Source of the DNA: a virus
Virus record (IMG/VR): IMGVR_UViG_3300041405_000166
Span: 1 to 64,000 of that record
Direction: 5' to 3' (one strand)
DNA length: 64,000 bases
The position numbers were made by a program, and so were the translations under genes. Positions 1,960 to 43,952 of this stretch are shown here, piece by piece (position 1 is the first letter of the stretch; each line of letters opens with the position of its first letter). Under the pieces are notes generated by a model that worked only from the letters and a program-made list of their open reading frames with translations, searched no databases and was not told where the DNA came from.

Positions 1960-1974
1960 TCGTGACCATAAGGT
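1960..1974 (+). promoter_or_regulatory. Putative late promoter (TCGTGAC motif)
   Basis: TCGTGAC-ca-TAAGGT upstream of the MuF gene; the same motif recurs before 8 other putative late genes. Confidence 0.65.
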
Positions 1975-2000
1975 GCCTGGAGAACTCAAAGGACACCTGC

Positions 2001-3176
2001 ATGTCACAGTTTATCGACGTTTCAAGCGTTCCAGACCATGCCTTCGACCAGGGCATCGAGGCGATGTACAAGGCGATTGGCGAAGGTGGCGACGACGGCA
2101 CTACGCGACCGCACGAGTCCCCCTTTGTCCGTGAGCTGATCGAGCGTTTCACTCAGCGCGGCCTGTTGCAGATTCATGGCGTGCAGACTGAGCTGGACGA
2201 GTGGATCAAGGGCGAGCACTTCCGGCCAGGTGCTGAAGTGCCGGCCGCGTTTGCTGGCGGGATCCTGAAGTGGACGCCCGACGAGTTGCGCCTGGCGAAG
2301 CTCTACCTGGAATCAATTCCCCCGGCCCAGTTCGGCATTGAGGACTGGTCGCTGCTGGTCGACTACATTGCTCAGCGCTACCTTCCGCCGGAGTTCGCCC
2401 GTACCGCAGCCGAGTGGATGGCGACCAAGTCGACGATCATGGGCAAGGTGCAGGAAGCCAAACCAGAATTGGAGGCGCCGGCTGTGTCGGTGCTGCTGCC
2501 AGCGATCCCGGAAACGTCGGCGGCGGCTGAGGCGATGTTTGGTCTGAATCGCTCACAGCGGGCGATCATGGACTTCGGTCAGGCGCGCTGTGCTGAAAAC
2601 ATCACCGGATTGACCGACAGCCTTCGCCACCGGATCAAGCGCGTGATCCTGGCGCACCAAGAGGCAGAGTTCATCGGCGACTCCGCGGCGACCGCTTCCA
2701 GCCTGCAAACGCAGCTGCTCGACGAGTTCGGTCCGTTGAATCGCGACTGGCGCCGTATCGCCATGACCGAGGCGTCGGAAAACTCCAATCAGGGGTTTAT
2801 CGCGGCGCTGGATCCGGGAACCATGGTTCGGCGCCAGGAACGCTACCAGGGTGCGTGCGCGTTCTGCCGCAAGATCGACGGAAACGAGTTCAAGGTCGTT
2901 GACCCGGCGCAGAAGATCAAGAATCCGGAAACGGATGTGTGGGTGGGTAAAACCAACATCGGCCGGTCCGCTTCGCCAATGAAGCGCGTCAACGGTGCGC
3001 TGATGCCGCGAAACGCCGCTGAGCTGTGGTGGCCCGCTGCTGGGGTGCAGCATCCGCATTGTCGGGGAATCTGGATCATCATCAAGCAGCGCGAGAAGGC
3101 CGGCGACGCGAAGTTTAGCGCCTGGCTGGATGAAAAGCTGAAGGCGCCAGCCAGACCTGTCGTGATTGCAGACTAA
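2001..3176 (+). CDS. Phage minor head/morphogenesis protein (MuF / SPP1 gp7-like)
   Basis: WRRIAMTE, ACAFC and QHPHCRG motifs. True start is ATG 2001 (AAGGA RBS), not 1539. Confidence 0.75.
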   Translation: MSQFIDVSSVPDHAFDQGIEAMYKAIGEGGDDGTTRPHESPFVRELIERFTQRGLLQIHGVQTELDEWIKGEHFRPGAEVPAAFAGGILKWTPDELRLAKLYLESIPPAQFGIEDWSLLVDYIAQRYLPPEFARTAAEWMATKSTIMGKVQEAKPELEAPAVSVLLPAIPETSAAAEAMFGLNRSQRAIMDFGQARCAENITGLTDSLRHRIKRVILAHQEAEFIGDSAATASSLQTQLLDEFGPLNRDWRRIAMTEASENSNQGFIAALDPGTMVRRQERYQGACAFCRKIDGNEFKVVDPAQKIKNPETDVWVGKTNIGRSASPMKRVNGALMPRNAAELWWPAAGVQHPHCRGIWIIIKQREKAGDAKFSAWLDEKLKAPARPVVIAD

Positions 3177-3212
3177 CGTTCACAGTTTCGATCGGTCCGG
3201 GGATGCTCGCAG

Positions 3213-4610
3213 ATGAGTTTGGTACAGCAATTGGTAATGCCAATGGTGATCGGCCTCGTCATGCCGATTGACCGGGTGCGTGGCGGTGCCAGTCCACCGC
3301 CTGCACCGACCACTGCGTTTTTCACCTCAGCACAATTCTCCCCTGGCTTCAGCGGCTCGATCAGCACTACCAAGAACGCGGCCAAGGTCTACGCCCGCGG
3401 CGCGCTGACTCTGTGGTCTGGTTTCATCGCCGGTACCGAGGCCAAGCTTACCGCACCGACCGACGCTGGTGACTACGACGGTTCGTTGCAGGTCGCGATT
3501 GACGGCGGCGCCTTCACCAGCGCTGCTCGAGCCGGTTCGGTTTACACCCTGTTCACTGGTCTGGCGCACGCCAACCGTTTTGTCGAAGTCCGTTGGGTCG
3601 TGCAGATGGGCGATGCGCCCTATATTGCCTCGTCCGGCAACGTGCTCGAAGTCACCGGCCAACCTCCGTCGATCAATCCGTCGATCAACCGGGTAGAGGC
3701 TGGGGCCAGCTCGTCGACCGGACTCTTTTCTGGCGCGCTGATCCCTAACAGCGCCACCTACACGCCGCAATTGCAGGCACCGTCTGGCACGGTATACGGC
3801 TCCAACGTCGGGTCAATCAAGCTGCGTGGTGCCTTCACTCGGTTGGTGGTGTCGGTCAACGGCATCCGCAAGATCGGTGTCAGCAAGAACGGTGCAGCGC
3901 CGGTGTTCTACTCGGTAGCCGATGAAACCGATAGTCCAGTGCGGGTGATGGTCGTGCCATGTGACGGCTCAGATGCCATCTACAACGTCTGGGACAGCGG
4001 CAACATTTTAAACACTGGCGGTCACTTCTCGGTGTCGGGCAACTCGACGCTGCTCGACATTGGCCCGATGTGGCGGATGCACATGTTCGGCGATTCGATT
4101 GTCTCGGGGGCAGGGCCTGGCGCCACTGCGGTGGATTCTGAGGTAATGTCCCTCGCTGCTACCCTGGGCGGGGTCGGCACCACCATCGGAGTCGCCGGCC
4201 AGACCATCGCCGGCTGCATGACGATGCTCGACAATACCTTGCCCCTGCTGACGGTGGAGGATGACGACGTAGCGATCCTGTCTATCGGCGGCAACAGTGC
4301 CGCGGGCGGGATCGACGCACAGAAGAAGGCCGACTACCTGGCCTGCATCAACAAGCTACGGGCCAAGGCGTACCGCAAGATCATCTGTCGCGGCATCCTG
4401 CCAACGCCGGACGGCTCAGACACCCGCGCCATCTATAACGTCGAGCTGCAGTCGGTGGTGACGGCCTTGGGTGATCCGCGCGTGGTCTGGATGGACACCA
4501 GTACCTGGGTCGGCTATGCGACGGTGGATAACACCCATCCAACGAACGTCGGCTATCGAACGATCTATAGCTATGAACTGCCGGCCGTCGCGGCAATCTT
4601 GGGCCTTTGA
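3213..4610 (+). CDS. Virion-type protein with C-terminal SGNH/GDSL hydrolase domain
   Basis: SGNH blocks FGDS, GVAGQT, IGGNS and DNTHP; beta-rich N-terminal region. Confidence 0.75.
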   Translation: MSLVQQLVMPMVIGLVMPIDRVRGGASPPPAPTTAFFTSAQFSPGFSGSISTTKNAAKVYARGALTLWSGFIAGTEAKLTAPTDAGDYDGSLQVAIDGGAFTSAARAGSVYTLFTGLAHANRFVEVRWVVQMGDAPYIASSGNVLEVTGQPPSINPSINRVEAGASSSTGLFSGALIPNSATYTPQLQAPSGTVYGSNVGSIKLRGAFTRLVVSVNGIRKIGVSKNGAAPVFYSVADETDSPVRVMVVPCDGSDAIYNVWDSGNILNTGGHFSVSGNSTLLDIGPMWRMHMFGDSIVSGAGPGATAVDSEVMSLAATLGGVGTTIGVAGQTIAGCMTMLDNTLPLLTVEDDDVAILSIGGNSAAGGIDAQKKADYLACINKLRAKAYRKIICRGILPTPDGSDTRAIYNVELQSVVTALGDPRVVWMDTSTWVGYATVDNTHPTNVGYRTIYSYELPAVAAILGL

Positions 4611-4619
4611 GGAATCGAA

Positions 4620-4889
4620 ATGACTATTATCTTCGCAAGTAAAACCACCGTGGCGCCGTCTGCCGATCAGGATGCTGCCGGGCCGGTGGCCCTGATTGCC
4701 TCCGGCTCATTCGGCGGCGCAGTGCTATTGATTGAGGTCCGATCGGACAGTCAAGCGTATGTGCCGCTGTATCAGTTCACTGAGGCCGGCGCGGTTAAGT
4801 TGGCGATGGTGACCGGTCAGCAATGGCGAGCCAGCCTGAGCAATGTCAGTGCTCTGACCTCGGTTAACCTGTCCGCGCTGGCGGGGTGA
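4620..4889 (+). CDS. Small hypothetical (beta-rich, possibly structural) protein
   Basis: 89 aa, GAGGA RBS, in operon. Confidence 0.7.
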   Translation: MTIIFASKTTVAPSADQDAAGPVALIASGSFGGAVLLIEVRSDSQAYVPLYQFTEAGAVKLAMVTGQQWRASLSNVSALTSVNLSALAG

Positions 4890-4892: not shown

Positions 4893-6161
4893 ATGTCTGA
4901 TTGGATGAAAGAAGGGTTCAGGGCGATCCTCATGCAGAATCGGCGCGCCCAAAATCCGGCATCGGCCCAGGTCGAAGCGCTGAGCTCCGTCGGCGGCAGT
5001 GTCCAGGCCGAAGGCGACACCAGCAAACTCAAGTTCGCCGGCTTCAACCTGGTGATCGAGAATCCGGCTGGGACCATCCGCGAAGGTGTGGACGAAACCG
5101 GCAAGGCCTGGCGGACTGAGTTTGCCCACGCCTATGGCGAGATCACCGGCAGCCTGGGCGTCGATGGTGATCCGGTGGACGTGTACGTGGGGCCAGACGA
5201 AGGCGCCACCGAGGTCTACATAGTCCGCCAGATGAAGCGCAAGCAGTGGGATCAGTTCGATGAGGACAAGTGCTTCATTGGCTTCGCCAGCATGGAAGAG
5301 GCGAAGATGGCCTACCTCAACCACTACGATGACCCTCGGTTCTTTGGCGGGATCATCGCCATGCCGATTGAGGAATTCAGGACCAAGGTCTACGCGACCA
5401 AGCACGCCCCGCAGATGATTAAGGCGCTGCTGTTTGTGAAGGCGCACGTCGCCGCACACACGCGCAAGCTGAAATCGGGCAAGGTAGTGAGCGTCGATGC
5501 GTACAGCACCAAGGTGGTGGCCCAGGCCAAACCTGGTGACACCAGCGGACATCCGGATCTCTTCGCACAAGCCCCAGCCAAAAAACCGCACGCGACCGAA
5601 ACCGAGGCTTTCCGTAAATGGTTCGGCGATAGCGTGGTGACTGATGATTGGGAGCAAGGTGGAAAACCCCGCGTTTTGTATCACGCAACCCCGCATGACT
5701 TTACGGAGTTCAAGCCAGGTGGCGGACCTCGTGAAGATGGGAAGTGGCTGAGTGGTCCTGCAATATTCCTGAGTCCAGATCCGAAGCGCCAGCCAGCCGC
5801 GCACAACATCGGCGGCTACCAGGGCAACTTCAAAGAGGGCACGCGGGTTATGCCGCTCTACGCCAGGATTGAAAACCCGCTCTACCTGGACGAGTTCAAT
5901 ATCCACGAGATGCGTGATCGCTGGACGAAGGATAACAAAGGTGAATTCCCTCAATGGATGTCGCCTACAACGGTCGACCACCTGAAGGCATCCGGATTCG
6001 ATGGCATCGTATATTTCAGAACCAGCCATGACGGGGAGGATCAGCACGAGGTGATTGTGTTCGATGCGAACCAGGTGAAGTCGGCGATCGGCAACAACGG
6101 CAATTTCGATCCGGCGCACCCTGACATGACCAAGGCGCTGATCGTCTGTCGCCGCGATTGA
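4893..6161 (+). CDS. Polyvalent protein: inorganic pyrophosphatase-like (InPase) domain + ADP-ribosyltransferase-like (ART-PolyVal type) domain
   Basis: N-half: IENPAG..R, YGEI..GVDGDPVDVYVG, DEDKCFIGF. C-half: FRKWFGDS..YHAT..F..F, IFLS, GFDGI, EVIVF..QVKSA.GNNG.F. Confidence 0.7.
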   Translation: MSDWMKEGFRAILMQNRRAQNPASAQVEALSSVGGSVQAEGDTSKLKFAGFNLVIENPAGTIREGVDETGKAWRTEFAHAYGEITGSLGVDGDPVDVYVGPDEGATEVYIVRQMKRKQWDQFDEDKCFIGFASMEEAKMAYLNHYDDPRFFGGIIAMPIEEFRTKVYATKHAPQMIKALLFVKAHVAAHTRKLKSGKVVSVDAYSTKVVAQAKPGDTSGHPDLFAQAPAKKPHATETEAFRKWFGDSVVTDDWEQGGKPRVLYHATPHDFTEFKPGGGPREDGKWLSGPAIFLSPDPKRQPAAHNIGGYQGNFKEGTRVMPLYARIENPLYLDEFNIHEMRDRWTKDNKGEFPQWMSPTTVDHLKASGFDGIVYFRTSHDGEDQHEVIVFDANQVKSAIGNNGNFDPAHPDMTKALIVCRRD

Positions 6162-6171: not shown

Positions 6172-6186
6172 TCGTGACGGCACCAT
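6172..6186 (+). promoter_or_regulatory. Putative late promoter (TCGTGAC motif)
   Basis: TCGTGAC-gg-CACCAT upstream of ATG 6214. Confidence 0.65.
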
Positions 6187-6213
6187 CCCGCAACAAATCG
6201 GACTGGTGCCCTC

Positions 6214-9200
6214 ATGCTGCTTATTCTGTTCAAAGACCTCCTTAAAGCCCAGCAGCTTGGCCTATTCGCCAGTCCGACGCTGGTGGCGCCGCATGTCCGC
6301 AAGGACGGAACCCTGGTCAACGCGCACATTCGCGTGGTGAAGAAGCGCCCGACCGTGCCGCTGAAAGGCCGCATCACCTCAGCACCGCGCCCGCATACGC
6401 CTGATCTGTTCGCTACCCATGACGAGCCTGTGGTGATCGGCCACACCCGCGATTTGTTCGACAGTGCGCCAGCGCCCCGAGCTGCTCAACCTGACCTGTT
6501 CGCTCCCGCAGTAGAAGCCCCGAAAATCAAGGCACCTGAGGTCAAAACCCCCGAGCCCGCTCCCACGGCACCGGACGACGTAAAGTGGTTCGGTAGCCAG
6601 GAGAAAGCAGACGCCTGGATCGGCAAAAAGAAGCTGTCCGACACGCATGAAGTTGTCGCGGTTGGTCGTCGCTTCGAGATCCATCCGCGGGCAACTGTCA
6701 AGGAATCCTCGGTAGTTGCTCCAGTCGTCAAGCCTCAAGTGACAACTGAAGTGTCAACTGCTCGCCAGCCTGGCATCAATTACGACGGGCATTTTTCCCC
6801 TTCTTCTATCGCGCCGTTCGGCGTGAGCGCTGGTGTGACCAAGGGCGAGCGGATCCGCATCAACAACGAAGCGCACAGCCTGATCAATCGTGGCGGCCCA
6901 TTCAGCGACGATGAGCGCGTCACCCTGAGCCAGTACAGCGGCAACGGCGGCGTGGGCGATAGCCTCAACGAGTTCTACACCGATACGCGTGTGGCCGCCG
7001 GCATGTGGAAGGTGCTGCATGACCTGGGCCTGCCTGAAGGCGCGCAAGTCCTGGAGCCTTCGGTGGCCACCGGCGTGTTCATGCACACCGCGCCCGACGG
7101 CGTGAAAGTGGTGGGCGTGGAACTGGACGGCATCAGTTCTCGGATTGCCCGGGCACTGCACGGCGCTGACCATGAAGTAAACAACTCCAGCCTCGAGCGC
7201 TTCGCGACGCAGGACGATCGCCAGTTCGACGCCGTCATTGGTAACCCACCGTTCGGTCTGCGCGGGGCACTGATCAAGGACGACAAACCGCACCTGGCCA
7301 CCGCCGAACAATACTTCATCGACACCGCGCTCGATAAGACCAAGGCCGGTGGCGTGATCGCCCTGATCTTGCCGTCGGGCGTGATGGACTCGAAAACCGG
7401 CCGGGCTTTCCGCCAAACCATCCTGACCAAGGGCGAGTTCATCGGTGCCCAACGCATGCCGAACACCGCGTTCGAGCACGCGCACACCGGCGTGACCACC
7501 GACGTGCTGTATCTGCGCAAGCGTCCGGATGACGTGGCGATGGCGCTGGGCACGCTCGATGCCAGTCAGCTGCGTGAGCTCGGCGTGCTGGATGACGAAT
7601 TCCTGGCCGGCTCCTACTTCACCGGTACCGGCGCTGAGAATGTGTTGGGCACCATGACTGAAGGCTGGCGGGCCAAGGCCGGGATGGGCAACGACATCAC
7701 CGTCGAAGGTTCGATGCAGGGCGTGCCGGAGGCGATCGCCGCATTCAAGCCTGCGCCGGTAGCGGTCGGTCCGAGCATGGCTGACGTGCTGGCGGTGCTT
7801 CCCGAAGGCCAGGCCCGCGATCGCGCCTTGTCCGCTGCTGGGAAAAAGGCTTATGCCGAGGCCCGTGTCGGCGACACCAAGGTGGTCGATGGCGTGACCT
7901 ACGTCCTGCAGGGTGATCCACCGCGCTGGAATCGCATGGATGATCTGATGCAGAAACCGTCAGTGGCCGATGCGTTGCCACTGGCCGAGGACATTGATCG
8001 GCTGATGAATGGGCAAGCGGTCGATCGTCCGGCGCTGGAGGCCGCGGTGAATGCCTACATCGAAGCCTACGGAATCCCGTCCAAGAACAAAGACCTGATG
8101 ATGGCGGCCGGCTCCGACAAGCGACTGTATCGCCTGGTGGGCGCGATCAAGCCTGACGGCTCGCTGTCCGACGTGGTGACCGGTTCCACGCGCAAGCAGG
8201 AAGCCACGCTGGATGGTGCGGCGCAGGCGCTGGCAGTAGAGCACGGCACCTTCACGCCGGCTGAGCTGGCCGCACGCTGGGGCAAGGGTGACGCCGAGGA
8301 AGCGCTTGATCACCTGTACGCCTCGAAGTCCTACGCCTTGCTGCCCGACGGCAACTGGACCACCACCGACGCATACCTGTCAGGCGAGTTGTGGCCGAAG
8401 CTGGATGCTGCCCGGGCCGCCATGCTTAACAGCGAGCTGAGCCAGATCGACCGCGCCAAGTTCGAGCAGCAGGCGCAGCAGCTGGAAACCGTGATCGATC
8501 CGGCCTCGATCGATGACGTCGATATCGCCGTCAACCAGGCCTGGATCCCGCTGTCGATCATCAGCGAGTACTTCACCGAGAAAAACGCCAACGGCAACGA
8601 GTGGACCAAAAAACTGGCACCGGTCGAAGTGACCTATGCCGATGGCATCTACACCGTCAGCGGCGGCAACGAGTACGGCGAGACCAAGCTGCTCGACACC
8701 TACCTCAACCGCACCGGCGTGCGCAAGGATGACAAGGCCACGCTCGAGGCGATGAATCGCGACTTCAAAACCTGGGCCCTGACGTCCGGCCACCGCGACG
8801 AGCTCGAAGACCTGTACAACCGCAAGTTCCGCGGCTTTGCCGAACGCACCTATTCGGAAACCCCATTCGAGATCCCCGGCCTGAATGCTGACGGCCTGAA
8901 GACCTACCAATACGCCGGCCTTCGCTGGGCCATGGACACCGGCAAGGGCATCATTGCTGCCGACGTGGGCCTGGGCAAAACGGCGCGCGGTCTGATCCTG
9001 GCGAAGATGGCCAAGGCTGACGGCAAGGCTGAGCGGCCGATGATCGTCGTACCGAAATCGGTCCTGGCCAACTGGTATGCAGAAGCCGAGAAATGGTTCC
9101 CCGGTTCGCGTGTGCTGACCATCGGCGAGAGTTATTCGCGTGATGAGGACGGCAAGCTGATCGGCAAGCAGGACACCGTGGCCGAGCGCAAGCGCAAATA

Positions 9201-13110: not shown

Positions 13111-13917
13111 ATTGACGAGAGCGTTTGACGCGCCTCATGAACCGGTGGCCGTGGAATACGGGAACTTCTCAAGCTTGGCGAGTACGCCTCGAACCTTGGG
13201 ATGCGATACGGCAGGAGCATGCGGGTCAATGACAGGAGGGAAAGACCCCGCGAATTCGGCGAAAGCCAAAACGTAAAAGAGAGATGCGACCCTGGAATCT
13301 TTTTCAATAAGTCTGGATCGCGATTTTAACGACGGTATCTAAACACGTCGAGACAGCCGGAGAGACGGACCGATCGACTTCGCCGACCAGAATCAAGACT
13401 CCTTGGCGAGGCTGCATCGGAAGTTCCACGGTAACGCTTCGGCGCTAGCCGGCACTTGGGAGAAAGGGGCCTGGAGGCTTACAGAGCGAAACGCCGCGTG
13501 AGTAAGGCATTGACCCCGGCTATGTGGAACTTCCGATGCAGAAAGCTCGTGACAACTGAAACATGAGATCGCCCCCGCTTCGCACAGTGGGCTTAGGTTC
13601 CGTCCCTTTGGGGTTATCGCGGGCCAAGGGGCGACAGGTAACGAGTAGAGTTTTTTGTATCCCGGCACCTCGCAAGAGGCTGTATCGGAAACATCCCCTC
13701 GTGATAGCAGGCTGGCCAGCAGGCAACCGCACCCGAAAGGGTTGGATAGGACCTCACTGGGGATGTTTACCGATGCAGATGAATGTCCAGGCTGATGGGC
13801 GCCGATCTGGGTTCAATTCCCAGACCTCTGATTATGGGGAATTGCCTGAAGGCGGCGACCTTCCGAAACGCTGGTCGTCTAACAGTTAAAGCCGGAGATC
13901 AGCACCGGCCATCTGCA
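13111..13917 (+). ncRNA. Structured non-coding RNA modules, 3' part of RNA island (family unassigned)
   Basis: Perfect 18-bp stem 13412-13429/13524-13541; related stem 13680-13698/13759-13778; tRNA-like module 13774-13917; two more GACAG..GG(A/G)AGAC hairpins. Confidence 0.6.
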
Positions 13918-14626: not shown

Positions 14627-14653
14627 AAAAACCCGCCAAGTGCGGGTTTTTTT
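14627..14653 (+). terminator. Rho-independent terminator (possibly bidirectional)
   Basis: AAAAACCCGC-caagt-GCGGGTTTTTTT. Confidence 0.85.
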
Positions 14654-14664
14654 ATGCCTGCTCG

Positions 14665-14679
14665 TCGTGACCGCACCAT
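14665..14679 (+). promoter_or_regulatory. Putative late promoter, leaderless
   Basis: TCGTGAC-cg-CACCAT, 5 nt before ATG 14685; no SD. Confidence 0.65.
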
Positions 14680-14684
14680 GCGGC

Positions 14685-17600
14685 ATGACCGAGAATATCA
14701 CGCACCGCCTCATCTTCCTGAAGGCCCTCGCTGAAGGCGAGCGCTGGATTACCGTAAAGGCCCCCGGCGCTGAAAAGGGTTCGCCCGTGCTCGTGCGCGA
14801 GAATCCGGATGGATCTGCATCCGTGATCGGCGGCGCCGGTGGCAAACTCAACCACTTGAAGCTGCGCGGCGTGAAGTCGAAAGAGCAGTACAAGAAGGAA
14901 GCCGGCGACAAGGAGAAATCCAAGCGCGAGGCGAAAAAGCAGGCGGTCACTGAGCAGCGCGCCAAGGACAAAGAGGCCGGGATTACCGGATCGAAAGCCC
15001 GAGTCCGCAAAGAGATCAAGGAACAGACTCACGCCGAAGAGCGCGAATACGTCAAGGCCACGGCCAAGGTCATGGGTTGGGACGAAAAGGATCTTGCGTT
15101 CGACGAAGAGAAACATGCCGACCTGTCTCCAGGGGCGGTGATCAAGCTGGCGCGTGAGCACCATCGCGAGCTGGTGAAGAAGGCCAACGAAGCCTACGAC
15201 CTGAACCGCCAAAGCCTGGCGATGGATTCCGAGGCGCGTCAGCAAGCGAACATCGGCGGCGCCACCTACAAGCCTGAAGACCCTGACAGTATTTCCGTTG
15301 CCGATCTGGACGTGACTGCTGGCCCGCCTACCGGCCTGGGATTCTCGGCCGACTATAAAGGTCGCGCTGAAGAAGCCGGGTTGACCGACGACGAGCTCGA
15401 AAAAGAAGCCGGCCAGGTCCGCGAAAAGAAAATGACGCAGATGTCCGATGGCGAGCGCAAATCTGCGATCAGCCGCGGGCAGTCGGCCAAGCTGGTTAAG
15501 CAGGAACTGCAGGGTGTTCGTGAAGAGGACCCGGGCAAGTCGGAACGACTGAAAGCGCACCTGGTGGAAGCGGACAAAGCGCTCGAGCTGATGAAGGCGA
15601 AAAAGCGTTTGGACCTGGCCCGCAAGAAAGCCTCCGACGCACTGAAGAGCGTGGACAAATCCAACGTCGAGCCGAAAGCGTACGTGATTGAGGTCGACAG
15701 CGCCGACGTGGATAGCGCGGTGGAAAACCAGGTTACCAACGATCTGCGCACCATCCGCACGCGTAATTTCCTGAGCGAAGCCGGGAAGGTCTCTGACAAG
15801 TCGATCGGCTCGCACGTCGCCAGTGGCGCGTTCAACTCGATCAATAGCCTGTCGCTGGCCGCAACGGGTGCCGGCCTGATGGATCGCAGCACCGTCGACG
15901 TACTCGGCGTGGCCGGTGCCGCTTCGGTCCTGGCGCGTCGCCTGCACACCGATCTGACGCCAGAGGAGATGGAGCAAGTCGCCGATGGCATGGAAGACTT
16001 CCACCAGCACCACTATATGGACCTGTCCAAGAAGTCGTTGGACGAAGCCAAGGCGCTGACGGACCAGGTTGAAAGCATGACGCTGCCAACTGCCGACAAT
16101 GGCGGGGACATGGCGGCGCTCCAAGAGATCAATGCTCGGCGCCGGGATGCGCTGAACGAATCGACGCGCATTCTCGGCACGGCCGCGGGCGAGATGGAAG
16201 CCAACGCCGCGCTGGTGCAGGCGCTTCGTGACAAGCCGGCCGATAAGCTGGAAATCCCCATGGGCAAGGCGCAGCCGGAGGCGATCATCCGCCAGGCCCG
16301 TGCGCTGGGCTTACAGCGGGGTGATTACTCGATCGATCCAGTAGGCGGGCAAACCTTCCTGACCATCACCGCCAGCGGCATGGACCGCCTGGCTGAGCCG
16401 GTCGATCGTGAATCGATGCAGCAGATTCGCCGAAACCTCGACATCATCGAAGGCAAGCAGGACGAAGACCAGTGGCTGCCGCAAGGCTTTGCCAATCGCC
16501 CCGACCTGGATCTCAAACCGAAACCCGGCGTCGCGGCCAAACTGGCCATCCCGTTCGAAGTCGGCGCCGATGCCGAACAGTCCCTGGCAGACTACATTGG
16601 TGGTCGGGCCGCTGACGGTGATTCGCCGGCCGATATCGTCGCTGACTTGCAGTCCGAGACCTTCATGCAGAAGGCTGGCGATCGCCGTGACCAATATATG
16701 CAAGCGTTGGACAAGCTGGCCCCGGCGCAAGATGCCGACGGCAAGCAGATCCGCAATGAATCGCTGCAATCGTCGTTCGAGAAAATGGCGGACGAGTTCG
16801 TCGAGAAACGCTACGGCGCCGAACTGACGCCGCTGCACAAGCAACAGTTCGAAATGAACCAGACTTCAGTCGATGCCTTGCACCGCGCACTGGCGGCCGA
16901 GCCTTCCGGGGTGGCGGCGTACAAGCCGATCGGCGAACTGGATCACAAAGACCAGCGCGCGCTGCGGGAGTACTTCGCCCGTGAGGTGGCGCACGAATCG
17001 CCGGAGGCTGGCGAGATCCGCCAGAAGCTGGACACGCTCGTGGCCAATGAGCCTGAGCAGCATGTGACCGATATGTTCGGCGAGCAGGCGAATAACCCTG
17101 AGTGGTTGGCCTGGAAGTCCGAGCGCGACGACCTGTCCGCCCAGCACAACAGCAGCAGTCTGAGCTGGGGAAAATACGTCAAGGCCATGGGCGGCACTGC
17201 CAAGGCTTACGAAGCGGCTCAAGACCTGATCCGCTCCAAGATCGCGAAGGGCTTCCACGAGAATTACAACACGCTGAATCCGAAAGGCGCCTTGAAGCTG
17301 GGCCACACGGTGATCCGCAACAACCTGGATCACCTGGACACGGTCGACCCGAAAGCCCGGGCCGCCAGGGAGGCGAAGGAAACCGCTCTGCGCGATGGTC
17401 TGCGTGAGCGCGTCGGCGGCAAGTACGCCAGTGGCAGCGTGATCGACAAGCTGGATCAGCAGCGTGAGCAACAGGCCGCGTTCGAGCAGTCGCAGCTGGG
17501 CATGTTCTCGTCTGAGGAAATGCCGGCCACCGAACAAGAGAAAGCCTTGGGCGCGGATGAGCGCTATACCTTGGGCCATTCAGCCGAGCAAAAGATCGCG

Positions 17601-21357: not shown

Positions 21358-21397
21358 TCGTGACTTCATGATCCCCGCCACTGAGCGGGGATTTTTT
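21358..21397 (+). promoter_or_regulatory. Putative late promoter overlapping a terminator hairpin
   Basis: TCGTGAC-tt-CATGAT, then ATCCCCGC-cactga-GCGGGGAT-TTTTT. Confidence 0.6.
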
Positions 21398-21658
21398 ATG
21401 CGCGACACCATCGACAACGTGCACAAGCAACTGGCCAAAGTCGCCGGCCTGCATGCGCGCGTCCAGGCCACCGACGATCGTATCGGTCAATCAGCCAGCG
21501 AGCGCTTGGCCAAGGTTGACGAGATGCTCGCCGACCTGCGCCCGAAGGTGATCCTCGACAGCGACGCAGCAGACGAATACATGGCCCTGGTGCATGAGCG
21601 CGGTCAGCTCGTGACAACGCAGCAGGCAACACGCCAAGAGACTGGCTCGCAGTCGTGA
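21398..21658 (+). CDS. Hypothetical protein
   Basis: 86-aa helical ORF preceding the head genes. Confidence 0.65.
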   Translation: MRDTIDNVHKQLAKVAGLHARVQATDDRIGQSASERLAKVDEMLADLRPKVILDSDAADEYMALVHERGQLVTTQQATRQETGSQS

Positions 21659-21667
21659 CAGCAGAAT
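21653..21667 (+). promoter_or_regulatory. Putative late promoter, leaderless
   Basis: TCGTGAC-ag-CAGAAT, 7 nt before ATG 21675. Confidence 0.65.
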
Positions 21668-21674
21668 TCAGGCC

Positions 21675-22589
21675 ATGAACGACATAGGTGCAACGACGTT
21701 GACCGCGAATGATGAAGAACTGCTAGCGAACGTCCCGGGCTTTATCAGCGTGGGCGGATTGCTCAAAGCTACGCCGTCCAGTGAGGACGGGGAGCGCTTC
21801 ATCTATTTGGAAGCGAGCAATGAGGACGTCGATCACCAGAACGAAATCGTTCTGCAAAAGGCGCTCAAGGCTTCGTCTGACTACTACCTGCGTCACGGCA
21901 ACATCGACCTTTCGCACTACTCGATCATGGGGCCGAAAGCCGGCATCCCGAATCATCTTGAATACGAAATCGGAAAGCCGGTTGAAGTCAGGATGAATGG
22001 CAAGAAGACCTTCGTGAAGGCCCAGCTCTATCGCGGCGACTCGCCTCAGGCGCGCAATGCCAACATGGTCTGGGAAACCCTGACATCACAGCAACCCCCG
22101 ATGCGCTGGTATCCGTCCGTGGGTGGCGCCGTGCTGTCGAAGTCCGTGCAGTTCGATCCAAAGACGCAGCAGCGCGTTGCCGTCATTGAGGAAGTGCGCT
22201 GGAACAACATCGCCCTCGATCGCTGCCCGGTGAACAAAACAGTTTCCGAAATCAATACCGCTCCGATTGGCGTATTCGCCAAAGCGTTGAACGGTTTTGT
22301 CATGGCCAAGACGTTGGAGGCCGGTTACGGCACCGACTCGGCAACGCTTACTGGCGGCGGGGCCATGCGCACCCAAAGCCTGCACGGAGCTCCAGCCAAC
22401 TACTGGGACTTCCGCAACAAACTCGCCAGCGCCCTCAAAAACGGGAGTGCCGGTAAGAACCCTGGCGCGCGACAACTCGTTGAGTATGCCGCCAAGACGT
22501 TCGGAGTGTCGCTGGATGAAGCGGCGAAAACCGTAGAGCGCTTCATGCGCGACCTTAATACCGAGCTGAAAAACCGGAGTAAATCATGA
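21675..22589 (+). CDS. Prohead (capsid maturation) protease
   Basis: EASNEDVDHQNE, NIDLSH, IGKP, PSVGG, IAL..CPVN; positioned before scaffold and capsid. Confidence 0.7.
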   Translation: MNDIGATTLTANDEELLANVPGFISVGGLLKATPSSEDGERFIYLEASNEDVDHQNEIVLQKALKASSDYYLRHGNIDLSHYSIMGPKAGIPNHLEYEIGKPVEVRMNGKKTFVKAQLYRGDSPQARNANMVWETLTSQQPPMRWYPSVGGAVLSKSVQFDPKTQQRVAVIEEVRWNNIALDRCPVNKTVSEINTAPIGVFAKALNGFVMAKTLEAGYGTDSATLTGGGAMRTQSLHGAPANYWDFRNKLASALKNGSAGKNPGARQLVEYAAKTFGVSLDEAAKTVERFMRDLNTELKNRSKS

Positions 22590-25339: not shown

Positions 25340-26113
25340 ATGTCCATCTTCGTAAAGGAAACAATCGTTGCGGAGATGCGCGAGTGGCTGGCTCCAGCCA
25401 TTCGCACTTATCTTGCTGGGATCGTGCTGTCGGATGATTTTATCTGGAGCAAGGTCCGTGCTGCCGAAGCGGATGCCGCACAGAAGCTGCGGGTCTTCCT
25501 CGAGCCTACCAAGGTTCTGCCGTTCGGACATGATCCGAGCGAGGAGCCAACCGACATGCCCTGGGCCGAAGAACCGGCCTACGATTATGACCCTGATTTT
25601 TTCGTGAACAATCGCTGGGGTTACATCATCACCCGGCAGAGTCCGATCATCGAAGTCGAAAAAATGGAGTTCGCTTACCCGGCTCCAACGCAGTCGATTC
25701 TGCGTGTGCCGAATGATTGGCTGCGCCTCGACAAGAAGTACGGGCATATCCGCCTGGTGCCTTCGAGTCAGGCATTCATGGCCCCACTCGGCGCCTACAT
25801 CATGCAGGCCCTGGGCGGTGGTCGCACCATCCCACACATGATCAGCGTGACCTACATTGCCGGCCTGAAGGATGTCTTCGAGGATTACCCGAACTTGATC
25901 GAGCTGATCAAGATGATGGCCGGGCTCAAGATCATCCTCGGCGCCTTCGTGCCGGCCAGCGGCAGTATCAGTGCTGACGGTCTGTCGCGATCGATGAGTG
26001 TCGACACGGCCAAGTTCCAGGACCAGATTGACTACGAACTCAACGGGCCAAAGGGTAGCAATGGTGGCCTGATGAGTGAAATTCACGGCATTCGCAGCAT
26101 GGTGATCATGTAA
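25340..26113 (+). CDS. Putative head-tail adaptor/neck protein
   Basis: 257 aa; VTYIAG and SISADGLSRS motifs; position after capsid. Confidence 0.6.
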   Translation: MSIFVKETIVAEMREWLAPAIRTYLAGIVLSDDFIWSKVRAAEADAAQKLRVFLEPTKVLPFGHDPSEEPTDMPWAEEPAYDYDPDFFVNNRWGYIITRQSPIIEVEKMEFAYPAPTQSILRVPNDWLRLDKKYGHIRLVPSSQAFMAPLGAYIMQALGGGRTIPHMISVTYIAGLKDVFEDYPNLIELIKMMAGLKIILGAFVPASGSISADGLSRSMSVDTAKFQDQIDYELNGPKGSNGGLMSEIHGIRSMVIM

Positions 26114-26927: not shown

Positions 26928-27772
26928 CCCCCGAAATCCAGTTTCACGGCTTCGCGGAACACTTCCTCTGCCAGTGGCGTCATGCGCTCGGCGACTTGCT
27001 TGGCCAAGAACAGGCCAGGCTTCGCCGGGATGATCCAGCCGCTTGAGCCTTCCATCATCACCCTGAACGTCATGTACGAGCTGCGGCTTTCGACGCCAGA
27101 ACTCGACTCCATGCGCACCATGCCCGCGTACTTGTTCTGTACGTCCTTGCCATGTTTGGCCAGGTCGCCAGACTTGAGTGCGCCTGCCCAGCGGTAATCG
27201 CGAGATGGCACGACGGAGCGGCCTTTGGTGTTCGGGTCCGAGGCAAACTGCGGTTGCTTGCGGGCGATCACCATGCCGGCCCCAGGGATCAGGTGCACGG
27301 TCTGCCCGGCCAGGCGCTCGCCTTTGCCGACAATCAGGGATTTGGCTAGGTCGCGGGCCTGCTGGTAAACACCGAAGGGCATGGCGCTCTTGCCATTGCC
27401 TGGTGTGTTGTGGCGAAACGGGATGATCAGAAAGCGTTTACCACTGGCGGTCCGGCGCACCTTGAGGCTCGTGTCGAGCATCTTCTTCAGGTCACGCTCG
27501 GCGCGTCCGGTTTCGATCGCCTCGGCGTTCTTGTAGGTGGCGACCACTTCAGCCGAGAACGCGCCTTTGTAGTCCCAGGTGATCGACCTGGCGTAGTCCT
27601 GGCGTTCCTTGGACCAGAGAGGGGCATTCATCACCGCTGACGTCCAGTCCCGGTGCGCCGCTGCGGCCACGGCGCCGACCGCTTCATGCAGGCGCGGGAA
27701 AATCTCCTTGCTGAGGTTCGGCGCAAGGTTCATCAGTTCGGACAAATCGACGTTAATGCTGAAGTAGGCCAT
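26924..27772 (-). CDS. Putative virion neck/tail-completion protein, inverted
   Basis: IETGRAERDLKK, FLIIPFRH, YMTFRVM, GWIIP motifs; has its own TCGTGAC promoter. Confidence 0.6.
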   Translation of the reverse strand: MAYFSINVDLSELMNLAPNLSKEIFPRLHEAVGAVAAAAHRDWTSAVMNAPLWSKERQDYARSITWDYKGAFSAEVVATYKNAEAIETGRAERDLKKMLDTSLKVRRTASGKRFLIIPFRHNTPGNGKSAMPFGVYQQARDLAKSLIVGKGERLAGQTVHLIPGAGMVIARKQPQFASDPNTKGRSVVPSRDYRWAGALKSGDLAKHGKDVQNKYAGMVRMESSSGVESRSSYMTFRVMMEGSSGWIIPAKPGLFLAKQVAERMTPLAEEVFREAVKLDFGG

Positions 27773-27778
27773 GGGTCT

Positions 27779-27813
27779 ATGTTCACGTCACGATCAGGTC
27801 GTGACCGCATCAT
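27779..27813. promoter_or_regulatory. Back-to-back divergent late promoters, both leaderless
   Basis: GTCACGA-tcagg-TCGTGAC. Minus: GAACAT then 6 nt to ATG 27772. Plus: CATCAT then 7 nt to ATG 27821. Confidence 0.7.
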
Positions 27814-27820
27814 CCTGCCC

Positions 27821-28648
27821 ATGATCTCATTCGCGCAATCCCTCGCCATTGGCAATGCTGTTCGCATTGTCCTCTCGCCACCAGCTGGTGCTACGCGTTG
27901 GCGCCTGCTGCGCAAAGCGACTGACACTTTCACCGGGCAGGATGATCCGGCGGCGCTGGTGGTGCTGGACAGCAAGCAGACCATCAGTGCAGTGGATCGC
28001 CAGTCGCTGACCAATACCAGTACCTATTTCTATCGCCTCTACTCCCTGACCGGTTCGACCTGGGCGCCTTCGGCGACGGTGCCGGTCACGGTGACTGCCG
28101 ATTACCAGGAAGTAACCGATGACGTCCTTACGATGGTGCTCGATCGCCTGAACCAGGGCCTGTTTGTCGAGCTCCAGCGCGGCAAGCTCAAACACCCGAA
28201 TAACCGTATTCCAGTGCTGTCCGCGTTCCCTTTCACGAAGGAAATTGCCTGGCCTGTCGTGACAGTACATTTGTCGTCGGATGGATCGGATGGTCGTGGC
28301 ATCGGTGAAACGCTGGCGCCAGATGAGTTTGATGGAGACGACTGGGAGGTCGGTGAAGGCTGGTTGTCCCGTGTACGCCTGGACATCATCGGCTGGTCGC
28401 AGAACGCGATCGAGCGTCAGTCACTGCGGCAAGCCATTCGCCGCGTGATCATCGCCAACCTTCCTGTCTTCGACAGCGCTGGGATGATCCAGATCGACCT
28501 GAGTCAGTCGGACACCGAAGAGCCGAACGGCGACAAGAACACCGTAATTTACAAAAGCGTGGGCAGTTTCTCCTGTGTTGCACCGGTGCAGATCGTCAGC
28601 AAGCAGGATGAAATCATCGACGTTGAATTGACTGTAACCATGCCGTAG
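27821..28648 (+). CDS. Putative tail terminator/structural protein with FN3-like N-terminus
   Basis: YFYRLY motif; just upstream of the sheath. Confidence 0.55.
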   Translation: MISFAQSLAIGNAVRIVLSPPAGATRWRLLRKATDTFTGQDDPAALVVLDSKQTISAVDRQSLTNTSTYFYRLYSLTGSTWAPSATVPVTVTADYQEVTDDVLTMVLDRLNQGLFVELQRGKLKHPNNRIPVLSAFPFTKEIAWPVVTVHLSSDGSDGRGIGETLAPDEFDGDDWEVGEGWLSRVRLDIIGWSQNAIERQSLRQAIRRVIIANLPVFDSAGMIQIDLSQSDTEEPNGDKNTVIYKSVGSFSCVAPVQIVSKQDEIIDVELTVTMP

Positions 28649-39389: not shown

Positions 39390-39404
39390 TCGTGACAGCA
39401 CCAT
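39390..39404 (+). promoter_or_regulatory. Putative late promoter, leaderless
   Basis: TCGTGAC-ag-CACCAT, 6 nt before ATG 39411. Confidence 0.65.
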
Positions 39405-39410
39405 CCTGTC

Positions 39411-40574
39411 ATGAGCACACCATCGTCCCAGAAATCAGACGTCCGCCCGATCAGCTTCCTGCTCCAGGACCTGAGCAACGGCAACGACCTGACCAGCGTC
39501 CCACTGAACATCCGCCCAGCTGATCTGACGCGGGTCGAGCCGTCGCGCGCCTCGGTGCAGCAGACCCTCGGCGGGGCCTGGCTGGATAACTGGGGGCCCG
39601 GCATTCGCCAGGTGAACATCAACGGGCATACCGGCTGGCGTGGCAGCAACTATGAGGACGGCATGGAGCTGTTCCGGACGCTGAACAACACCGTATTCAA
39701 GAGCTGGCACGAGAAACGGCGCCTGGCGATCAGTGCCGGCCGGGATCCTGAGTTGATTCAGCTGATCTTCGCCGACCTGCTCGATGACTTCGTGTACGTG
39801 GTTGCCCCGATGAACTTCACGCTGCGCCGGAGCAAGCAGAGCCCGCTGCTGATGCAATACCAGATCAGCATGCTGGTGCTGTCTGAGGACTTGGTCGACC
39901 TGAAGAACAAGCTACGTCCGCCAGCGATCTTGCCGGGTGACATCGCGGTACCTGAGGCGCTGAAAACCCTGAGGGAGATCCTTGGACGAATCCGCAACTT
40001 TGCCACCAGCGTGGGTAACTTCATCAACGGCACCATTGGTGCAGCCGTCCGATCGTTCATGAACCTGACGGCCGATGTCCTGGCGGTGACGGTCGAGACG
40101 ATCAGTTCGCTCAAAGGTTCGTTTGATGAGGTTGCCGGTCCGCTGCTGTCGGTAGCCACCGACCTGGCCCAGGCCGGGCGCAACATCATGTGCACCGTCG
40201 CCACCGTGCAATCGCTGGGGACCTTCGTCAAATCCAGGATCATGGAAATCAGCGGGGCCTTCACCTACGCCTTGTGCCTGCTGAAAAACGCTTTTGGTGG
40301 CGGCAAGAAATACCCGGACTATTCCGACTGGTACGGCGCGAGCAACTGTTCGTCCATCTCAGGTGGTCGTCCGCTGTCGCCGCTGCGCTTCGAAAACCCG
40401 TTCTACAAACTGACGCCGAGTCCGAGCACGCCGATCACCCAGACACCAGAAGCGCGCAATTCCATGAAGCTGCTGGTAGGCATGGATGTGTTATCGACCA
40501 CGCCGACCATGGACATGGAGTCGAATATCCGCTCGGTGAATGACGGCACGGCTGTCGTTGAGGCTATCGCATGA
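39411..40574 (+). CDS. Baseplate/tail-associated structural protein
   Basis: QQTLGGAWLDNWG..INGHTG; first gene of the second baseplate operon. Confidence 0.6.
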   Translation: MSTPSSQKSDVRPISFLLQDLSNGNDLTSVPLNIRPADLTRVEPSRASVQQTLGGAWLDNWGPGIRQVNINGHTGWRGSNYEDGMELFRTLNNTVFKSWHEKRRLAISAGRDPELIQLIFADLLDDFVYVVAPMNFTLRRSKQSPLLMQYQISMLVLSEDLVDLKNKLRPPAILPGDIAVPEALKTLREILGRIRNFATSVGNFINGTIGAAVRSFMNLTADVLAVTVETISSLKGSFDEVAGPLLSVATDLAQAGRNIMCTVATVQSLGTFVKSRIMEISGAFTYALCLLKNAFGGGKKYPDYSDWYGASNCSSISGGRPLSPLRFENPFYKLTPSPSTPITQTPEARNSMKLLVGMDVLSTTPTMDMESNIRSVNDGTAVVEAIA

Positions 40575-41194
40575 GTGAGTTTGACCGCCCCCTGATCGGT
40601 TACCGCCTGGTTGACACCTTGTACGGCGACACCTTGCAGAAGGTGGCTGCGCGTGAGCTGGGCAACGCGGACCGTTGGCCTGACCTGGCCAACATTAATA
40701 ACCTGATGCCGCCGTACATCACTGATGACGCCTCGATCGCGTCTGATCGGGTGCTGCTGTCTGGCAGCACGCTGATCGTCCCCGCGCAAAGCAAGCTGTC
40801 GGAGGCGTCCGACTCGACGGATCCGGACAAGATCTATCAGATGGACATGGGCCTAATCGATGGCGATATGTCCGCTGATGAAAATGGCGACTTTCTGGTG
40901 TTCAACGGTCGCGACAACCTCAAGCAGGCTTTGGAGCACCGTGTCGATGTCGAGCGCGGGGAGCTGATGTGGCATCCGGAATACGGCTCGCTGCACCGGG
41001 CGTTGATCGGCACGGTGAATGGGCCGACGGCGAGCACGCTGGCGGCCAAGTATGTAGACGCGACGCTGAAGGCCGATCCTCGCGTCCAATCGGTCAATAG
41101 CGTGGTCGCCACCGTCGTCGGCGATCAAATCAATGTGGTGGCGGACGTAATGCCCATCGTTGGCCGATCCATGAAAATCGAGGTAGGTATCTAA
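40571..41194 (+). CDS. Baseplate protein: LysM-like N-terminus + gp25/W-like wedge domain
   Basis: GDTLQKVAARELG..W..LA..N; HPEYGS; ADPRV. Confidence 0.7.
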   Translation: MSEFDRPLIGYRLVDTLYGDTLQKVAARELGNADRWPDLANINNLMPPYITDDASIASDRVLLSGSTLIVPAQSKLSEASDSTDPDKIYQMDMGLIDGDMSADENGDFLVFNGRDNLKQALEHRVDVERGELMWHPEYGSLHRALIGTVNGPTASTLAAKYVDATLKADPRVQSVNSVVATVVGDQINVVADVMPIVGRSMKIEVGI

Positions 41195-42321: not shown

Positions 42322-42325
42322 CCGT

Positions 42326-43441
42326 ATGAAGCTCACGCAAAAGCTCCTTGGCTACCTCAATCGGGCCTTCAGTCGCGATCCTGTCCAATTCATGGCGCTG
42401 CGTATCAGCTATGACGGCGCCATGGTCTGGACGATCGAGGACGCGGTGCTGACTACCACCGTCACTGGCGGCACGGGCACGAGCCATGTGGTGCAGCTCA
42501 GCGACTACAACCTGGCGCAGCTGGCAAACTACTTCGCTGCACTGCCAGGGTACTCGGTGCCATTCCAGATCTCCGGAACGGCATCAACGCTGAGCGCTCG
42601 CGTACTGATGGATGGCACTGGCGACCAGGTGTTATCGAACGGCGATCACCTGTACGCCTATACCTCGCTGACCTGGGCTTTCCTTGAGGCGAGCGCCTAC
42701 GAGCTCAAGCACGCTCGCGAACAGATTTACCAGATGCTGCGGCAAATGGTGGTGCCAACAGCAGAAGACGAGTGGCTGGATGAGATCGGTGGCTATTACA
42801 ACGTCAGGCGCCAGGATGGCGAGATCGATTCGACCTATGGTCCTCGAATCATTTATGAGGTGATTCGCCCGCGGAACAACAACAAGGCGATTGAACTGGC
42901 AATCAGTCAGGCCACTGGCGGCCTACCATCGAAGGTCACGGACGTGACAATCCCGGGTGATATCTCTCCGCTTTACAATGGGGATATCGACCATGATGGG
43001 TCTAGGCTGTATAACGCGACAGGTAAATATCGGCGAAACCTCTTCGATGTCGAGTATGCGTTTGACCTCGAAGGCGCTGAAGATATTGCCCCATTCCAAG
43101 CGCGTGTGCTTGGCATCATTGACCAATTCCGCTCGGCCGGCACGCACCTTCGGCAGATTTTGCTTCAGTCTGGTCAGCTGGTTGATACCGCCACTTACAA
43201 CTTCACAGACAGTCTGGATTTCGTCGGCACCGTGACGATGGAAGATTCGGTGGATGCCCAGACCGATGACATGGAACTCTCCGGAATTCTTGGTTTGACT
43301 GATACGGCTGTCATGCCTGCCGACGGTGATCTGGTCATTGAGTCGCTGAGCGTTCACACCTACAACGGCGTCCATTTCTATGGCGGTTCTGGCCGTGTGG
43401 TGAATTACGACAGCGGCGAAACCGTGATCGAGACGCTGTAG
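42326..43441 (+). CDS. Baseplate wedge / tail protein I-like
   Basis: TAEDEWLDEIG.YY.V.R..GE.D..Y..RI; follows baseplate J. Confidence 0.65.
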   Translation: MKLTQKLLGYLNRAFSRDPVQFMALRISYDGAMVWTIEDAVLTTTVTGGTGTSHVVQLSDYNLAQLANYFAALPGYSVPFQISGTASTLSARVLMDGTGDQVLSNGDHLYAYTSLTWAFLEASAYELKHAREQIYQMLRQMVVPTAEDEWLDEIGGYYNVRRQDGEIDSTYGPRIIYEVIRPRNNNKAIELAISQATGGLPSKVTDVTIPGDISPLYNGDIDHDGSRLYNATGKYRRNLFDVEYAFDLEGAEDIAPFQARVLGIIDQFRSAGTHLRQILLQSGQLVDTATYNFTDSLDFVGTVTMEDSVDAQTDDMELSGILGLTDTAVMPADGDLVIESLSVHTYNGVHFYGGSGRVVNYDSGETVIETL

Positions 43442-43445
43442 TCGG

Positions 43446-43478
43446 TCGTGACATTACCCTCCTCTCATTAAAGGAGGG
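43446..43478 (+). promoter_or_regulatory. Putative late promoter with SD-sequestering hairpin
   Basis: TCGTGAC-at-TACCCT; CCCTCCT (43457-43463) pairs with AGGAGGG (43472-43478). Confidence 0.65.
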
Positions 43479-43487
43479 CATCCCCCC

Positions 43488-43952
43488 ATGATCCAACTCA
43501 TTGACGACGTGAATTACGGTGACCCCGAGTATCGGCCTACCGGTATTTTTACGCTGAATATTTACCGTAAAGGCGTGTTGGTCGAAGTCTATGAAGACGC
43601 CAATCTGGTGGTTGATCTATCGAAGCAACAGCTCGCTCGATTGATCGGTGGCGACGTCACCAACCGATCGTTGACCAAGATTGGTTTCGGTACGTCCGGC
43701 ACTGCGCCGGCCGCTGGGAACACGTCATTGACTGGTGCCTATGTGAATGCCCTTGGCGCTGTTACCTATCCCGCCACGAACTCCGTTCAATACGCCTTCA
43801 CCCTCGGCACCTCTGAGGCCAACGGCCTGTCGATCATGGAATTCGGTCTGTTCACTGCCGGCGATGTTCTCTTCGCTCGAAAAACGCGCGCCGGCGTCAT
43901 TGTGAAAGACTCCGACCTTTCGCTCGCTGGCACCTGGCGCATCAACTTTTAA
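43488..43952 (+). CDS. Tail fibre-associated structural protein
   Basis: IGFGTSG, EANG..I.EFGLF...LFARK. Confidence 0.65.
   Translation: MIQLIDDVNYGDPEYRPTGIFTLNIYRKGVLVEVYEDANLVVDLSKQQLARLIGGDVTNRSLTKIGFGTSGTAPAAGNTSLTGAYVNALGAVTYPATNSVQYAFTLGTSEANGLSIMEFGLFTAGDVLFARKTRAGVIVKDSDLSLAGTWRINF

Follow-up and report, generated by a model that had tools for sequence, protein, structure and literature searches.

In bacteriophage T4, the genes e, soc, 49 and I-TevI carry a hairpin that hides the ribosome-binding site (RBS), with the late promoter located inside its 5' arm (PMC3014915). A related arrangement is considered here for the virus record IMGVR_UViG_3300041405_000166, a 90,791-bp sequence with direct terminal repeats, of which bases 1-64000 were analysed (hereafter the window; higher coordinates refer to the rest of the record). 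The element in question is a composite motif, TCGTGAC-N2-nAnnnT, which stands in front of a set of genes and appears to act as a promoter. Judged from sequence alone, two of its sites, 6172 and 43446, share the geometry of T4 e and soc: on upstream transcripts the Shine-Dalgarno (SD) sequence and/or the AUG would be hidden, and the DNA that encodes the 5' arm holds the putative late promoter. The T4 promoters differ in that they are read by gp55 and carry TATAAATA, whereas TCGTGAC is combined here with a sigma70-like -10 hexamer. Moreover, T4 employs the hairpin in a few special cases against early read-through, while here it is found at about half of the leadered, presumably late promoters across the family, often between genes of the same promoter class.

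A second group of related systems involves leaderless messenger RNAs (mRNAs). The middle and late mRNAs of Thermus phage phiYS40 are leaderless (PMC3594737, review), and a -10 element adjacent to the open reading frame (ORF) is a signature of leaderless genes in Deinococcus-Thermus (PMC12340547). The present locus resembles these systems in that a -10 hexamer lies a few nucleotides before an ATG without SD, and in that whole classes of putative late genes are involved. It differs from phiYS40 in that the hosts are Proteobacteria (Pseudomonas, Bordetella and Aeromonas) and a conserved upstream heptamer joins the -10. In Proteobacteria, leaderless mRNAs are rare and poorly translated. No sign that IF2 or IF3 is manipulated was seen here, a point for which no targeted search was made. 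The cI mRNA of phage lambda, which is transcribed from PRM, is leaderless and begins with AUG; it offers a precedent in a phage of a proteobacterium, but it represents a single regulatory gene of low expression, whereas a class of abundant virion genes appears to be concerned here.

With regard to the promoter itself, the late promoters of phage P1 consist of a -10 and a phage-specific element that replaces the -35 box, and they involve Lpa together with the host protein SspA (PMC1891329, review). The motif described here similarly joins a sigma70-type -10 to a phage-specific upstream element instead of a -35 box, and likewise heads structural and lysis genes that are probably late. The T4 middle promoters (MotA/AsiA), which share this likeness, are also activator-dependent and have no -35 box. 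The P1 box is centred at about -22 and the MotA box at about -30, whereas the element here is only 2 nt away from the -10, at -21 to -15. To our knowledge, the P1 late genes are not known as leaderless.

The motif heads genes for the particle, for packaging, for lysis and for giant enzymes, which suggests that it is probably used late. According to the mechanism we propose, TCGTGAC-N2-nAnnnT would be a promoter without a -35 box, specific to contractile-tailed phages of approximately 90 kb that infect Proteobacteria; the host RNA polymerase probably reads its sigma70-type -10 with the help of a phage factor whose recognition sequence is TCGTGAC, at about -21 to -15, and transcription would start 6-8 nt past the hexamer. 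At the leaderless sites, the same ATG would be internal and without a ribosome site on any longer RNA. At the hairpin sites (6172, 43446, 21358 and, weakly, 1960), RNA coming from upstream would fold over the ribosome site or terminate (21358), while the RNA initiated at the promoter would lack the 5' arm and stay open. The net effect would be to tie the translation of each gene to the firing of its own promoter. A promoter with two architectures that make translation depend on it is, in our judgement, the best explanation and a fairly probable one. The architecture, that is the motif with its leaderless and hairpin geometry, is present and can be described with high confidence; that the arrangement acts as a translational lock is a tentative suggestion, for and against which the arguments are nearly balanced. 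The transcription start site (TSS), the assignment to the late phase, the nature of the reading factor and the effects on translation are inferred from the sequence.

The composite motif and its probable leaderless start codons

Megablast with 5 kb against a phage collection returned no match, and relatives were found by protein searches instead. Those with names share 35-45% protein identity with this virus and include Bordetella phage PHB04, Pseudomonas phages Dolphis, Jeremy and Touem01, Aeromonas phage ST4, Yersinia phage fHe-Yen8-01 and Morganella phage Mecenats66; closer relatives in IMG/VR are G001 (92%), G002 (90%, complete), G003 (65%) and G004 (40%). A literature search found no paper on TCGTGAC as a phage promoter, nor on the transcription of these phages. 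The paper on Mecenats66 discusses PHB04 and Dolphis with no mention of promoters, and a cappable-seq paper on Pseudomonas phage does not mention leaderless mRNAs.

The bare TCGTGAC heptamer is not enriched in the window (14 matches, about 10 expected). The composite motif, TCGTGAC-N3-A-N3-T, occurs 10 times with 0.49 expected, a count that none of 100 shuffles reached. Throughout the 90.8-kb genome, the nAnnnT hexamer follows exactly 2 nt 3' of the heptamer in 13 of the 19 TCGTGAC copies. The composite is matched 11, 11, 2 and 9 times in G001, G002, G003 and G004, respectively, where a reversed control gives 0-1 matches, and it is present in PHB04, Dolphis and Touem01 as well. Within the hexamer, A-11 and T-7 are invariant, and the PHB04 version reads nACAAT. 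The motif is strand-specific and sits just 5' of start codons, at a distance from the ATG that ranges from 5 to more than 30 nt. Identification of the motif as a promoter with a sigma70-type -10 is supported by the two invariant bases and the PHB04 version of the hexamer. An initial annotation of the window placed its features correctly within 1 nt throughout (the 3' arm of the hairpin at 1960 ends at 1997, not 1998), but it overlooked a tenth exact site (28257, within a coding sequence) and two TCGTGAT variants (3160 and 13699).

Five of the sites have an ATG immediately downstream. On the plus strand, the motif at 14665-14687 leaves 5 nt between hexamer and ATG 14685, the start of a 1517-aa SF2 helicase whose PHB04 orthologue, gp025, has the same design; at 21653-21677 the gap is 7 nt to ATG 21675 of the head maturation protease (phrog_1028), a layout conserved in G002, PHB04 and Dolphis; at 27799-27823 it is 7 nt to ATG 27821, where the N-termini of the orthologues (MI...) agree; and at 39390-39413 it is 6 nt to ATG 39411 of a tail-tube-initiator/baseplate gene, a site kept in eight relatives. 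The fifth site, at 27770-27793 on the minus strand, precedes the ATG at 27772 of a 282-aa gene by 6 nt. The initial annotation had read these five as promoters that stand 5-7 nt before an ATG with no clear SD, and this description was confirmed. Duplex energies at the five ATGs are -2.1 to -3.4 kcal/mol, compared with -5 to -10 kcal/mol for most genes. All starts are ATG, most of them represent the earliest possible start in their frame, and in many cases of this type the TGA within TCGTGAC provides an in-frame stop at -18. Alignments of their N-termini with the orthologues of Dolphis and PHB04 begin at residue 1. The possibility that the true starts lie elsewhere, with ordinary SDs, is thus answered by the in-frame stops and the orthologue N-termini, which fix the five ATGs.

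The same geometry recurs well beyond these genes. Of 43 motif sites in three genomes, 18 are followed after 5-7 nt (most often 6) by an ATG that begins an ORF of 100 codons or more (background 1.1%, binomial p 4e-24), and many such ATGs are independently annotated RefSeq/GenBank starts in PHB04, Dolphis and Touem01 (portal and protease, as well as the terminase in Dolphis). Given the canonical distance from T(-7) to +1, the predicted first transcribed base is the A of the ATG. In addition, genes of the leaderless type have less structure in their first 40 nt than SD-led genes of equal G+C (-5.5 versus -8.0 kcal/mol, p 0.0017), as a 5'-terminal AUG would need. These features suggest that the five genes probably have mRNAs that start at the ATG. 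The leaderless geometry is kept across phages of only 35-45% protein identity; for the orthologue of the 39411 gene, the order motif-N2-hexamer-N6-ATG is found in G001, G002, G003, G004, PHB04, Dolphis and Touem01, with variable sequence in the 6 nt that separate the hexamer from the ATG.

In the enterobacterial relatives fHe-Yen8-01 and Mecenats66, the second of which lacks exact motifs altogether, the 39411 orthologue has an SD like any ordinary cistron and no promoter precedes it, which suggests that the leaderless design is restricted to a single branch of the family. There is also a consequence for annotation. The deposited starts of Dolphis gp25 (23688 versus 23748) and gp15 (14320 versus 14482) and of PHB04 gp014 (13976 versus 13967) lie 3' of the ATG that is close to the hexamer, and the homology of all three proteins reaches the upstream ATG, 6-7 nt past the promoter hexamer. 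Gene finders that demand an SD have therefore probably placed several Dolphis and PHB04 starts too far downstream.

Hairpins between promoter motif and start codon

Four further sites have predicted leaders of 19-21 nt and a hairpin in the segment from motif to ATG, the fold of which gave the energies quoted below. The strongest is at 6173-6216 on the plus strand, where CGUGA and GGCACCA, both of the promoter (motif 6172-6186), pair with UGGUGCC and UCAUG, so that the -10 to -4 region before the gene and its AUG are paired (-21.7 kcal/mol, z -5.5). The gene, with its ATG at 6214, encodes a 1982-aa protein with N6-methylase and SNF2 assignments (Pfam/PHROGs). At 43446-43460 (+), ahead of ATG 43488 of a 154-aa gene, the hairpin CCCTCCT/AGGAGGG (43457-43478) overlaps the -10 with its 5' arm, and its 3' arm is the SD itself (-12.3 kcal/mol, z -2.2). 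The plus-strand motif at 21358-21372 precedes ATG 21398 of an 86-aa gene; here a terminator hairpin with a T-run (21370-21397) has nine pairs, six of them GC, followed by TTTTT at 21393-21397 (-17.3 kcal/mol, z -4.0). The terminator scan detected it too. On the 5' side the hairpin overlaps the -10, and the GGGGA before the ATG is part of its 3' arm. With this design, the promoter's own transcripts would escape termination, and the PHB04 holin and Dolphis gp28 promoters have the same terminator-hairpin design. Lastly, the promoter TCGTGAC-CA-TAAGGT at 1960-1974 (+) lies ahead of ATG 2001, a start that fits the N-termini of PHB04 gp030 and Dolphis gp6. Its weak hairpin, AGGTGCCT/AGGACACCT at 1971-1997, overlaps the -10 on the 5' side and covers the SD AAGGA, weakly paired, on the 3' side (-11 kcal/mol, z -1.2). 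Hence, the four hairpins of the initial annotation exist where it had put them, but they are of unequal strength (z -5.5 to -1.2).

The energy required to open the RBS, defined as positions -15 to +2 around the start codon, was compared between a long RNA that includes 60 nt of upstream sequence and the RNA that begins at the predicted +1. The difference averaged 6.4 kcal/mol for 18 leadered sites of three genomes; for the controls, 199 SD-led genes truncated at an equal distance, it was 1.35 kcal/mol (Mann-Whitney p 8e-5). All four hairpin sites fall within the top 1-2% of these controls, with differences of 11.2 kcal/mol at 6172, 8.2 kcal/mol at 43446 and 8.4 kcal/mol (top 1.5%) at 1960, and in the distant relative G004 four of six sites reach at least 7.5 kcal/mol. 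The masking is also specific to the native promoter segment. When promoter segments were swapped among 24 sites, at most one of the 23 foreign promoters masked the RBS as well as the native one at the four sites (none of 23 at 1960 and at 43446), and native promoters exceeded swapped ones overall (Wilcoxon p 0.001). The 5' arms overlap the -10 hexamer or TCGTGAC, so that transcripts from the promoter itself, with the predicted TSS, would not contain that arm. A scan of 5' ends in this genome revealed that masking is lost once the 5' end passes the -10, a result that is robust to the exact TSS.

Approximately one in two leadered sites shows masking of this kind, chiefly where the leader measures 14-24 nt. 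An inverted repeat, TCGTGAC/GTCACGA at 83766-83804, was considered as a fifth lock and rejected, as it is outside the minimum-energy fold and fails both controls.

Interchange of the two designs and competing explanations

Comparison of orthologues provides the best support for the view that the leaderless and the hairpin designs may be equivalent. In orthologues of the 43488 gene, six unrelated hairpins that pair an anti-SD with an SD are found, together with one leaderless start. The stem is CCCTCCT/AGGAGGG in this genome, TTACCCTC/GAGGGTAA in L048, CCCTCCTTT/AAAGGAGGG in G002, CCTCCGT/ACGGAGG in PHB04 and GAACCTC/GAGGTTC in G004, while L050 has a long terminator-like hairpin that encloses TCGTGAC and L051 has the leaderless start. 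Similarly, the PHB04 orthologue of the 6214 gene has an unrelated 11-bp hairpin that starts where the -10 ends and takes in the AU of the AUG, and both the 2001 gene and the portal gene are leadered in this genome and leaderless in PHB04 and Dolphis. The hairpins of orthologues are too different to be aligned in register. The 1960 stem is eroded in relatives that are 93-96% identical (L062 and L063).

A number of observations count against a lock. Four of the nine sites (1960, 27772, 27821 and 39411) have no adjacent co-directional gene upstream, and 14665 is already shielded by an intrinsic-terminator-like hairpin with a T-run at 14628-14654 (+), 10 nt 5' of the promoter, which was read by eye and is absent from the list of the terminator scan; at such sites there would be little read-through to lock out. 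The hairpin at 21358 is first of all an intrinsic terminator, and that at 1960 is not significant alone. At 6172 and 43446, the preceding genes are themselves under this class of promoter, which leaves a T4-like temporal lock without obvious use. Sites 3160, 28257 and 83766 show no masking, nor do several sites in Dolphis and PHB04. Unlocking would depend on a canonical TSS in PHB04, Dolphis and G004, whose 5' arms fall within the 6 nt that follow the -10. Furthermore, it would be unusual for Proteobacteria to translate major structural proteins efficiently from leaderless mRNAs. As to the factor that would read the motif, a six-frame search found no Sigma70_r2 or r4_2 Pfam domain, and Pfam/PHROGs scans of 30 proteins, a subset of the ORFs, gave no match resembling Lpa, MotA, AsiA or gp55. 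The statement of the initial annotation that the lock operates at all nine exact-motif promoters is overstated, as the motif sites at 3160 and 28257 show none. What favours a lock is the conserved geometry, the specific complementarity between promoter and RBS and the switching between designs; what speaks against it is the terminator nature of 21358, the weakness of 1960 and the scarcity of read-through at several sites.

The rival explanations differ in how much of this reading they retain. It is conceivable, although unlikely, that the promoter and the leaderless starts are as described and that the hairpins serve as translational-coupling or insulation devices and terminators instead of locks. 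A ribosome that ends the upstream gene would melt the stem, and the downstream gene would then be translated one-to-one on a polycistronic RNA and freely from its own promoter, while the hairpins with T-runs would merely end upstream transcripts. The upstream stops at 6159-6161 and 43439-43441 are 12-16 nt before 5' arms that begin at 6173 and 43457, a distance at which terminating ribosomes could melt the stems, so that the result would be coupling and not prohibition, and at 73475 the stop is inside the -10; the T-runs at 21358 and at the PHB04 holin and Dolphis gp28 sites, and the shared promoter class of the upstream genes, which makes a temporal lock seemingly purposeless, point in the same direction. 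However, 1960 and 83766 have no co-directional upstream gene with which to couple, coupling does not require complementarity aimed specifically at the promoter segment, and the interchange with leaderless starts is better explained by dependence on the gene's own promoter.

A more distant alternative, to which we assign a low probability, accepts the promoter but shifts the TSS further up- or downstream, in which case short SD-less leaders would be used through 70S scanning or reinitiation and the hairpins would be 5' stem-loops that stabilise the mRNA, a known role of such structures. The TSS positions used here are predicted ones, and the hairpins of PHB04, Dolphis and G004 that begin directly after the -10 would suit this explanation, but the 5' arms in this genome overlap the -10 or TCGTGAC and thus could not be transcribed in full from that promoter, and a transcript with the complete terminator of the 21358 type would abort itself. 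The modal gap of 6 nt, which equals the canonical distance from -10 to +1, and the selectively unstructured leaderless 5' ends are further arguments against a displaced start. Finally, TCGTGAC and the hexamer might not be a promoter at all but a signal in the RNA beside start codons, for instance a translational operator, an alternative element for ribosome binding or a site of processing, which we regard as very improbable. The strand specificity of the motif, its position always just 5' of start codons and the fact that the reading factor is only a candidate would agree with such a signal. On the other hand, nothing but two back-to-back motifs is found in the 48-bp spacer between the divergent genes 27772(-) and 27821, whose promoters must therefore be those motifs; at 67077, the motif precedes about 60 nt without an ORF and then a terminator; the A-11/T-7 pattern, like the nACAAT consensus, is characteristic of a -10 element; and the distance from motif to ATG ranges from 5 to more than 30 nt. 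A promoter with two architectures remains the explanation we prefer.

Candidate reading factor, significance and additional motif sites

Among the candidate regulators scanned with Pfam and PHROGs, only a weak helix-turn-helix match was obtained (65649-66371). A different protein of 186 aa, rich in cysteine and encoded at 68454-69014 beyond the window, has three invariant CxxC pairs and two further invariant Cys residues. Its gene is the first of an operon, beside a divergent control region, and the protein is kept in every family member examined, including PHB04, Dolphis, ST4, Touem01, fHe-Yen8-01, Mecenats66 and G004. It has no Pfam or PHROG match, and its structural model (pLDDT 68) matches no fold in the PDB. 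Since the protein also occurs in members without the exact motif, its phylogenetic profile does not discriminate, and the protein can be named no more than a candidate reader of TCGTGAC.

In its widest form, the proposal would be that the family of approximately 90-kb Pseudomonas, Bordetella and Aeromonas myoviruses hard-wires the translation of late genes to their own promoters by two interchangeable designs, which would imply efficient leaderless translation of abundant virion proteins, perhaps through a reprogrammed host initiation, together with a previously unrecognised reader of TCGTGAC. We consider this possible, with more doubt than confidence. If it were true, the cultured phages PHB04 (Bordetella bronchiseptica), Dolphis (Pseudomonas putida) and Touem01 (Pseudomonas syringae) would be tractable systems in which to ask how Proteobacteria translate leaderless mRNAs efficiently, whether a phage alters host translation initiation, and which protein reads a specificity element that abuts the -10. 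The 21-bp promoter, with or without a self-masking leader, might also serve as a compact part whose output is set by the 5' end of the transcript.

Several motif sites have features of their own. The variant TCGTGAT-TG-CAGACT at 3160-3174 (+) is ahead of ATG 3213, with an RBS that is not sequestered (opening-energy difference 0.1 kcal/mol). Between the promoters at 1960 and 6172 lie genes for a GDSL-lipase-domain protein (3213-4610) and for a protein with InPase and ART-PolyVal domains (4893-6161), which are typical 'polyvalent protein' modules and adjoin the giant methylase/helicase gene. A second variant, TCGTGAT-AG-CAGGCT at 13699-13713, is located between the two giant enzyme genes, in the stretch from 12.5 to 13.9 kb, which has no credible coding sequence; PHB04 offers a parallel, with a motif at 25934 followed by about 260 nt of non-coding DNA before the helicase promoter. 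The exact motif at 28257-28271 (+), inside the coding sequence 27821-28648, is conserved in G001 and G002 and may be an internal promoter that raises transcription of the tube and sheath (28960) genes; alternatively, it may stand in front of a 55-codon ORF in another frame.

Some promoters are packed into the last codons of the preceding gene. The TGA of the motif at 21653 is the stop (21656-21658) of the gene 21398-21658, and at 73475, beyond the window, the stop of the upstream gene (73486-73488) falls inside the -10 hexamer. Also beyond the window, the exact motif TCGTGAC-GC-TATGCT at 67077 is followed by about 60 nt without an ORF and then by a strong terminator, CCGCC...GGCGG with T8, a layout that is repeated in G002. 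The segment 67077-67160 is therefore a candidate small RNA that would be transcribed from a late promoter, convergent with the minus-strand gene 67163-67978.

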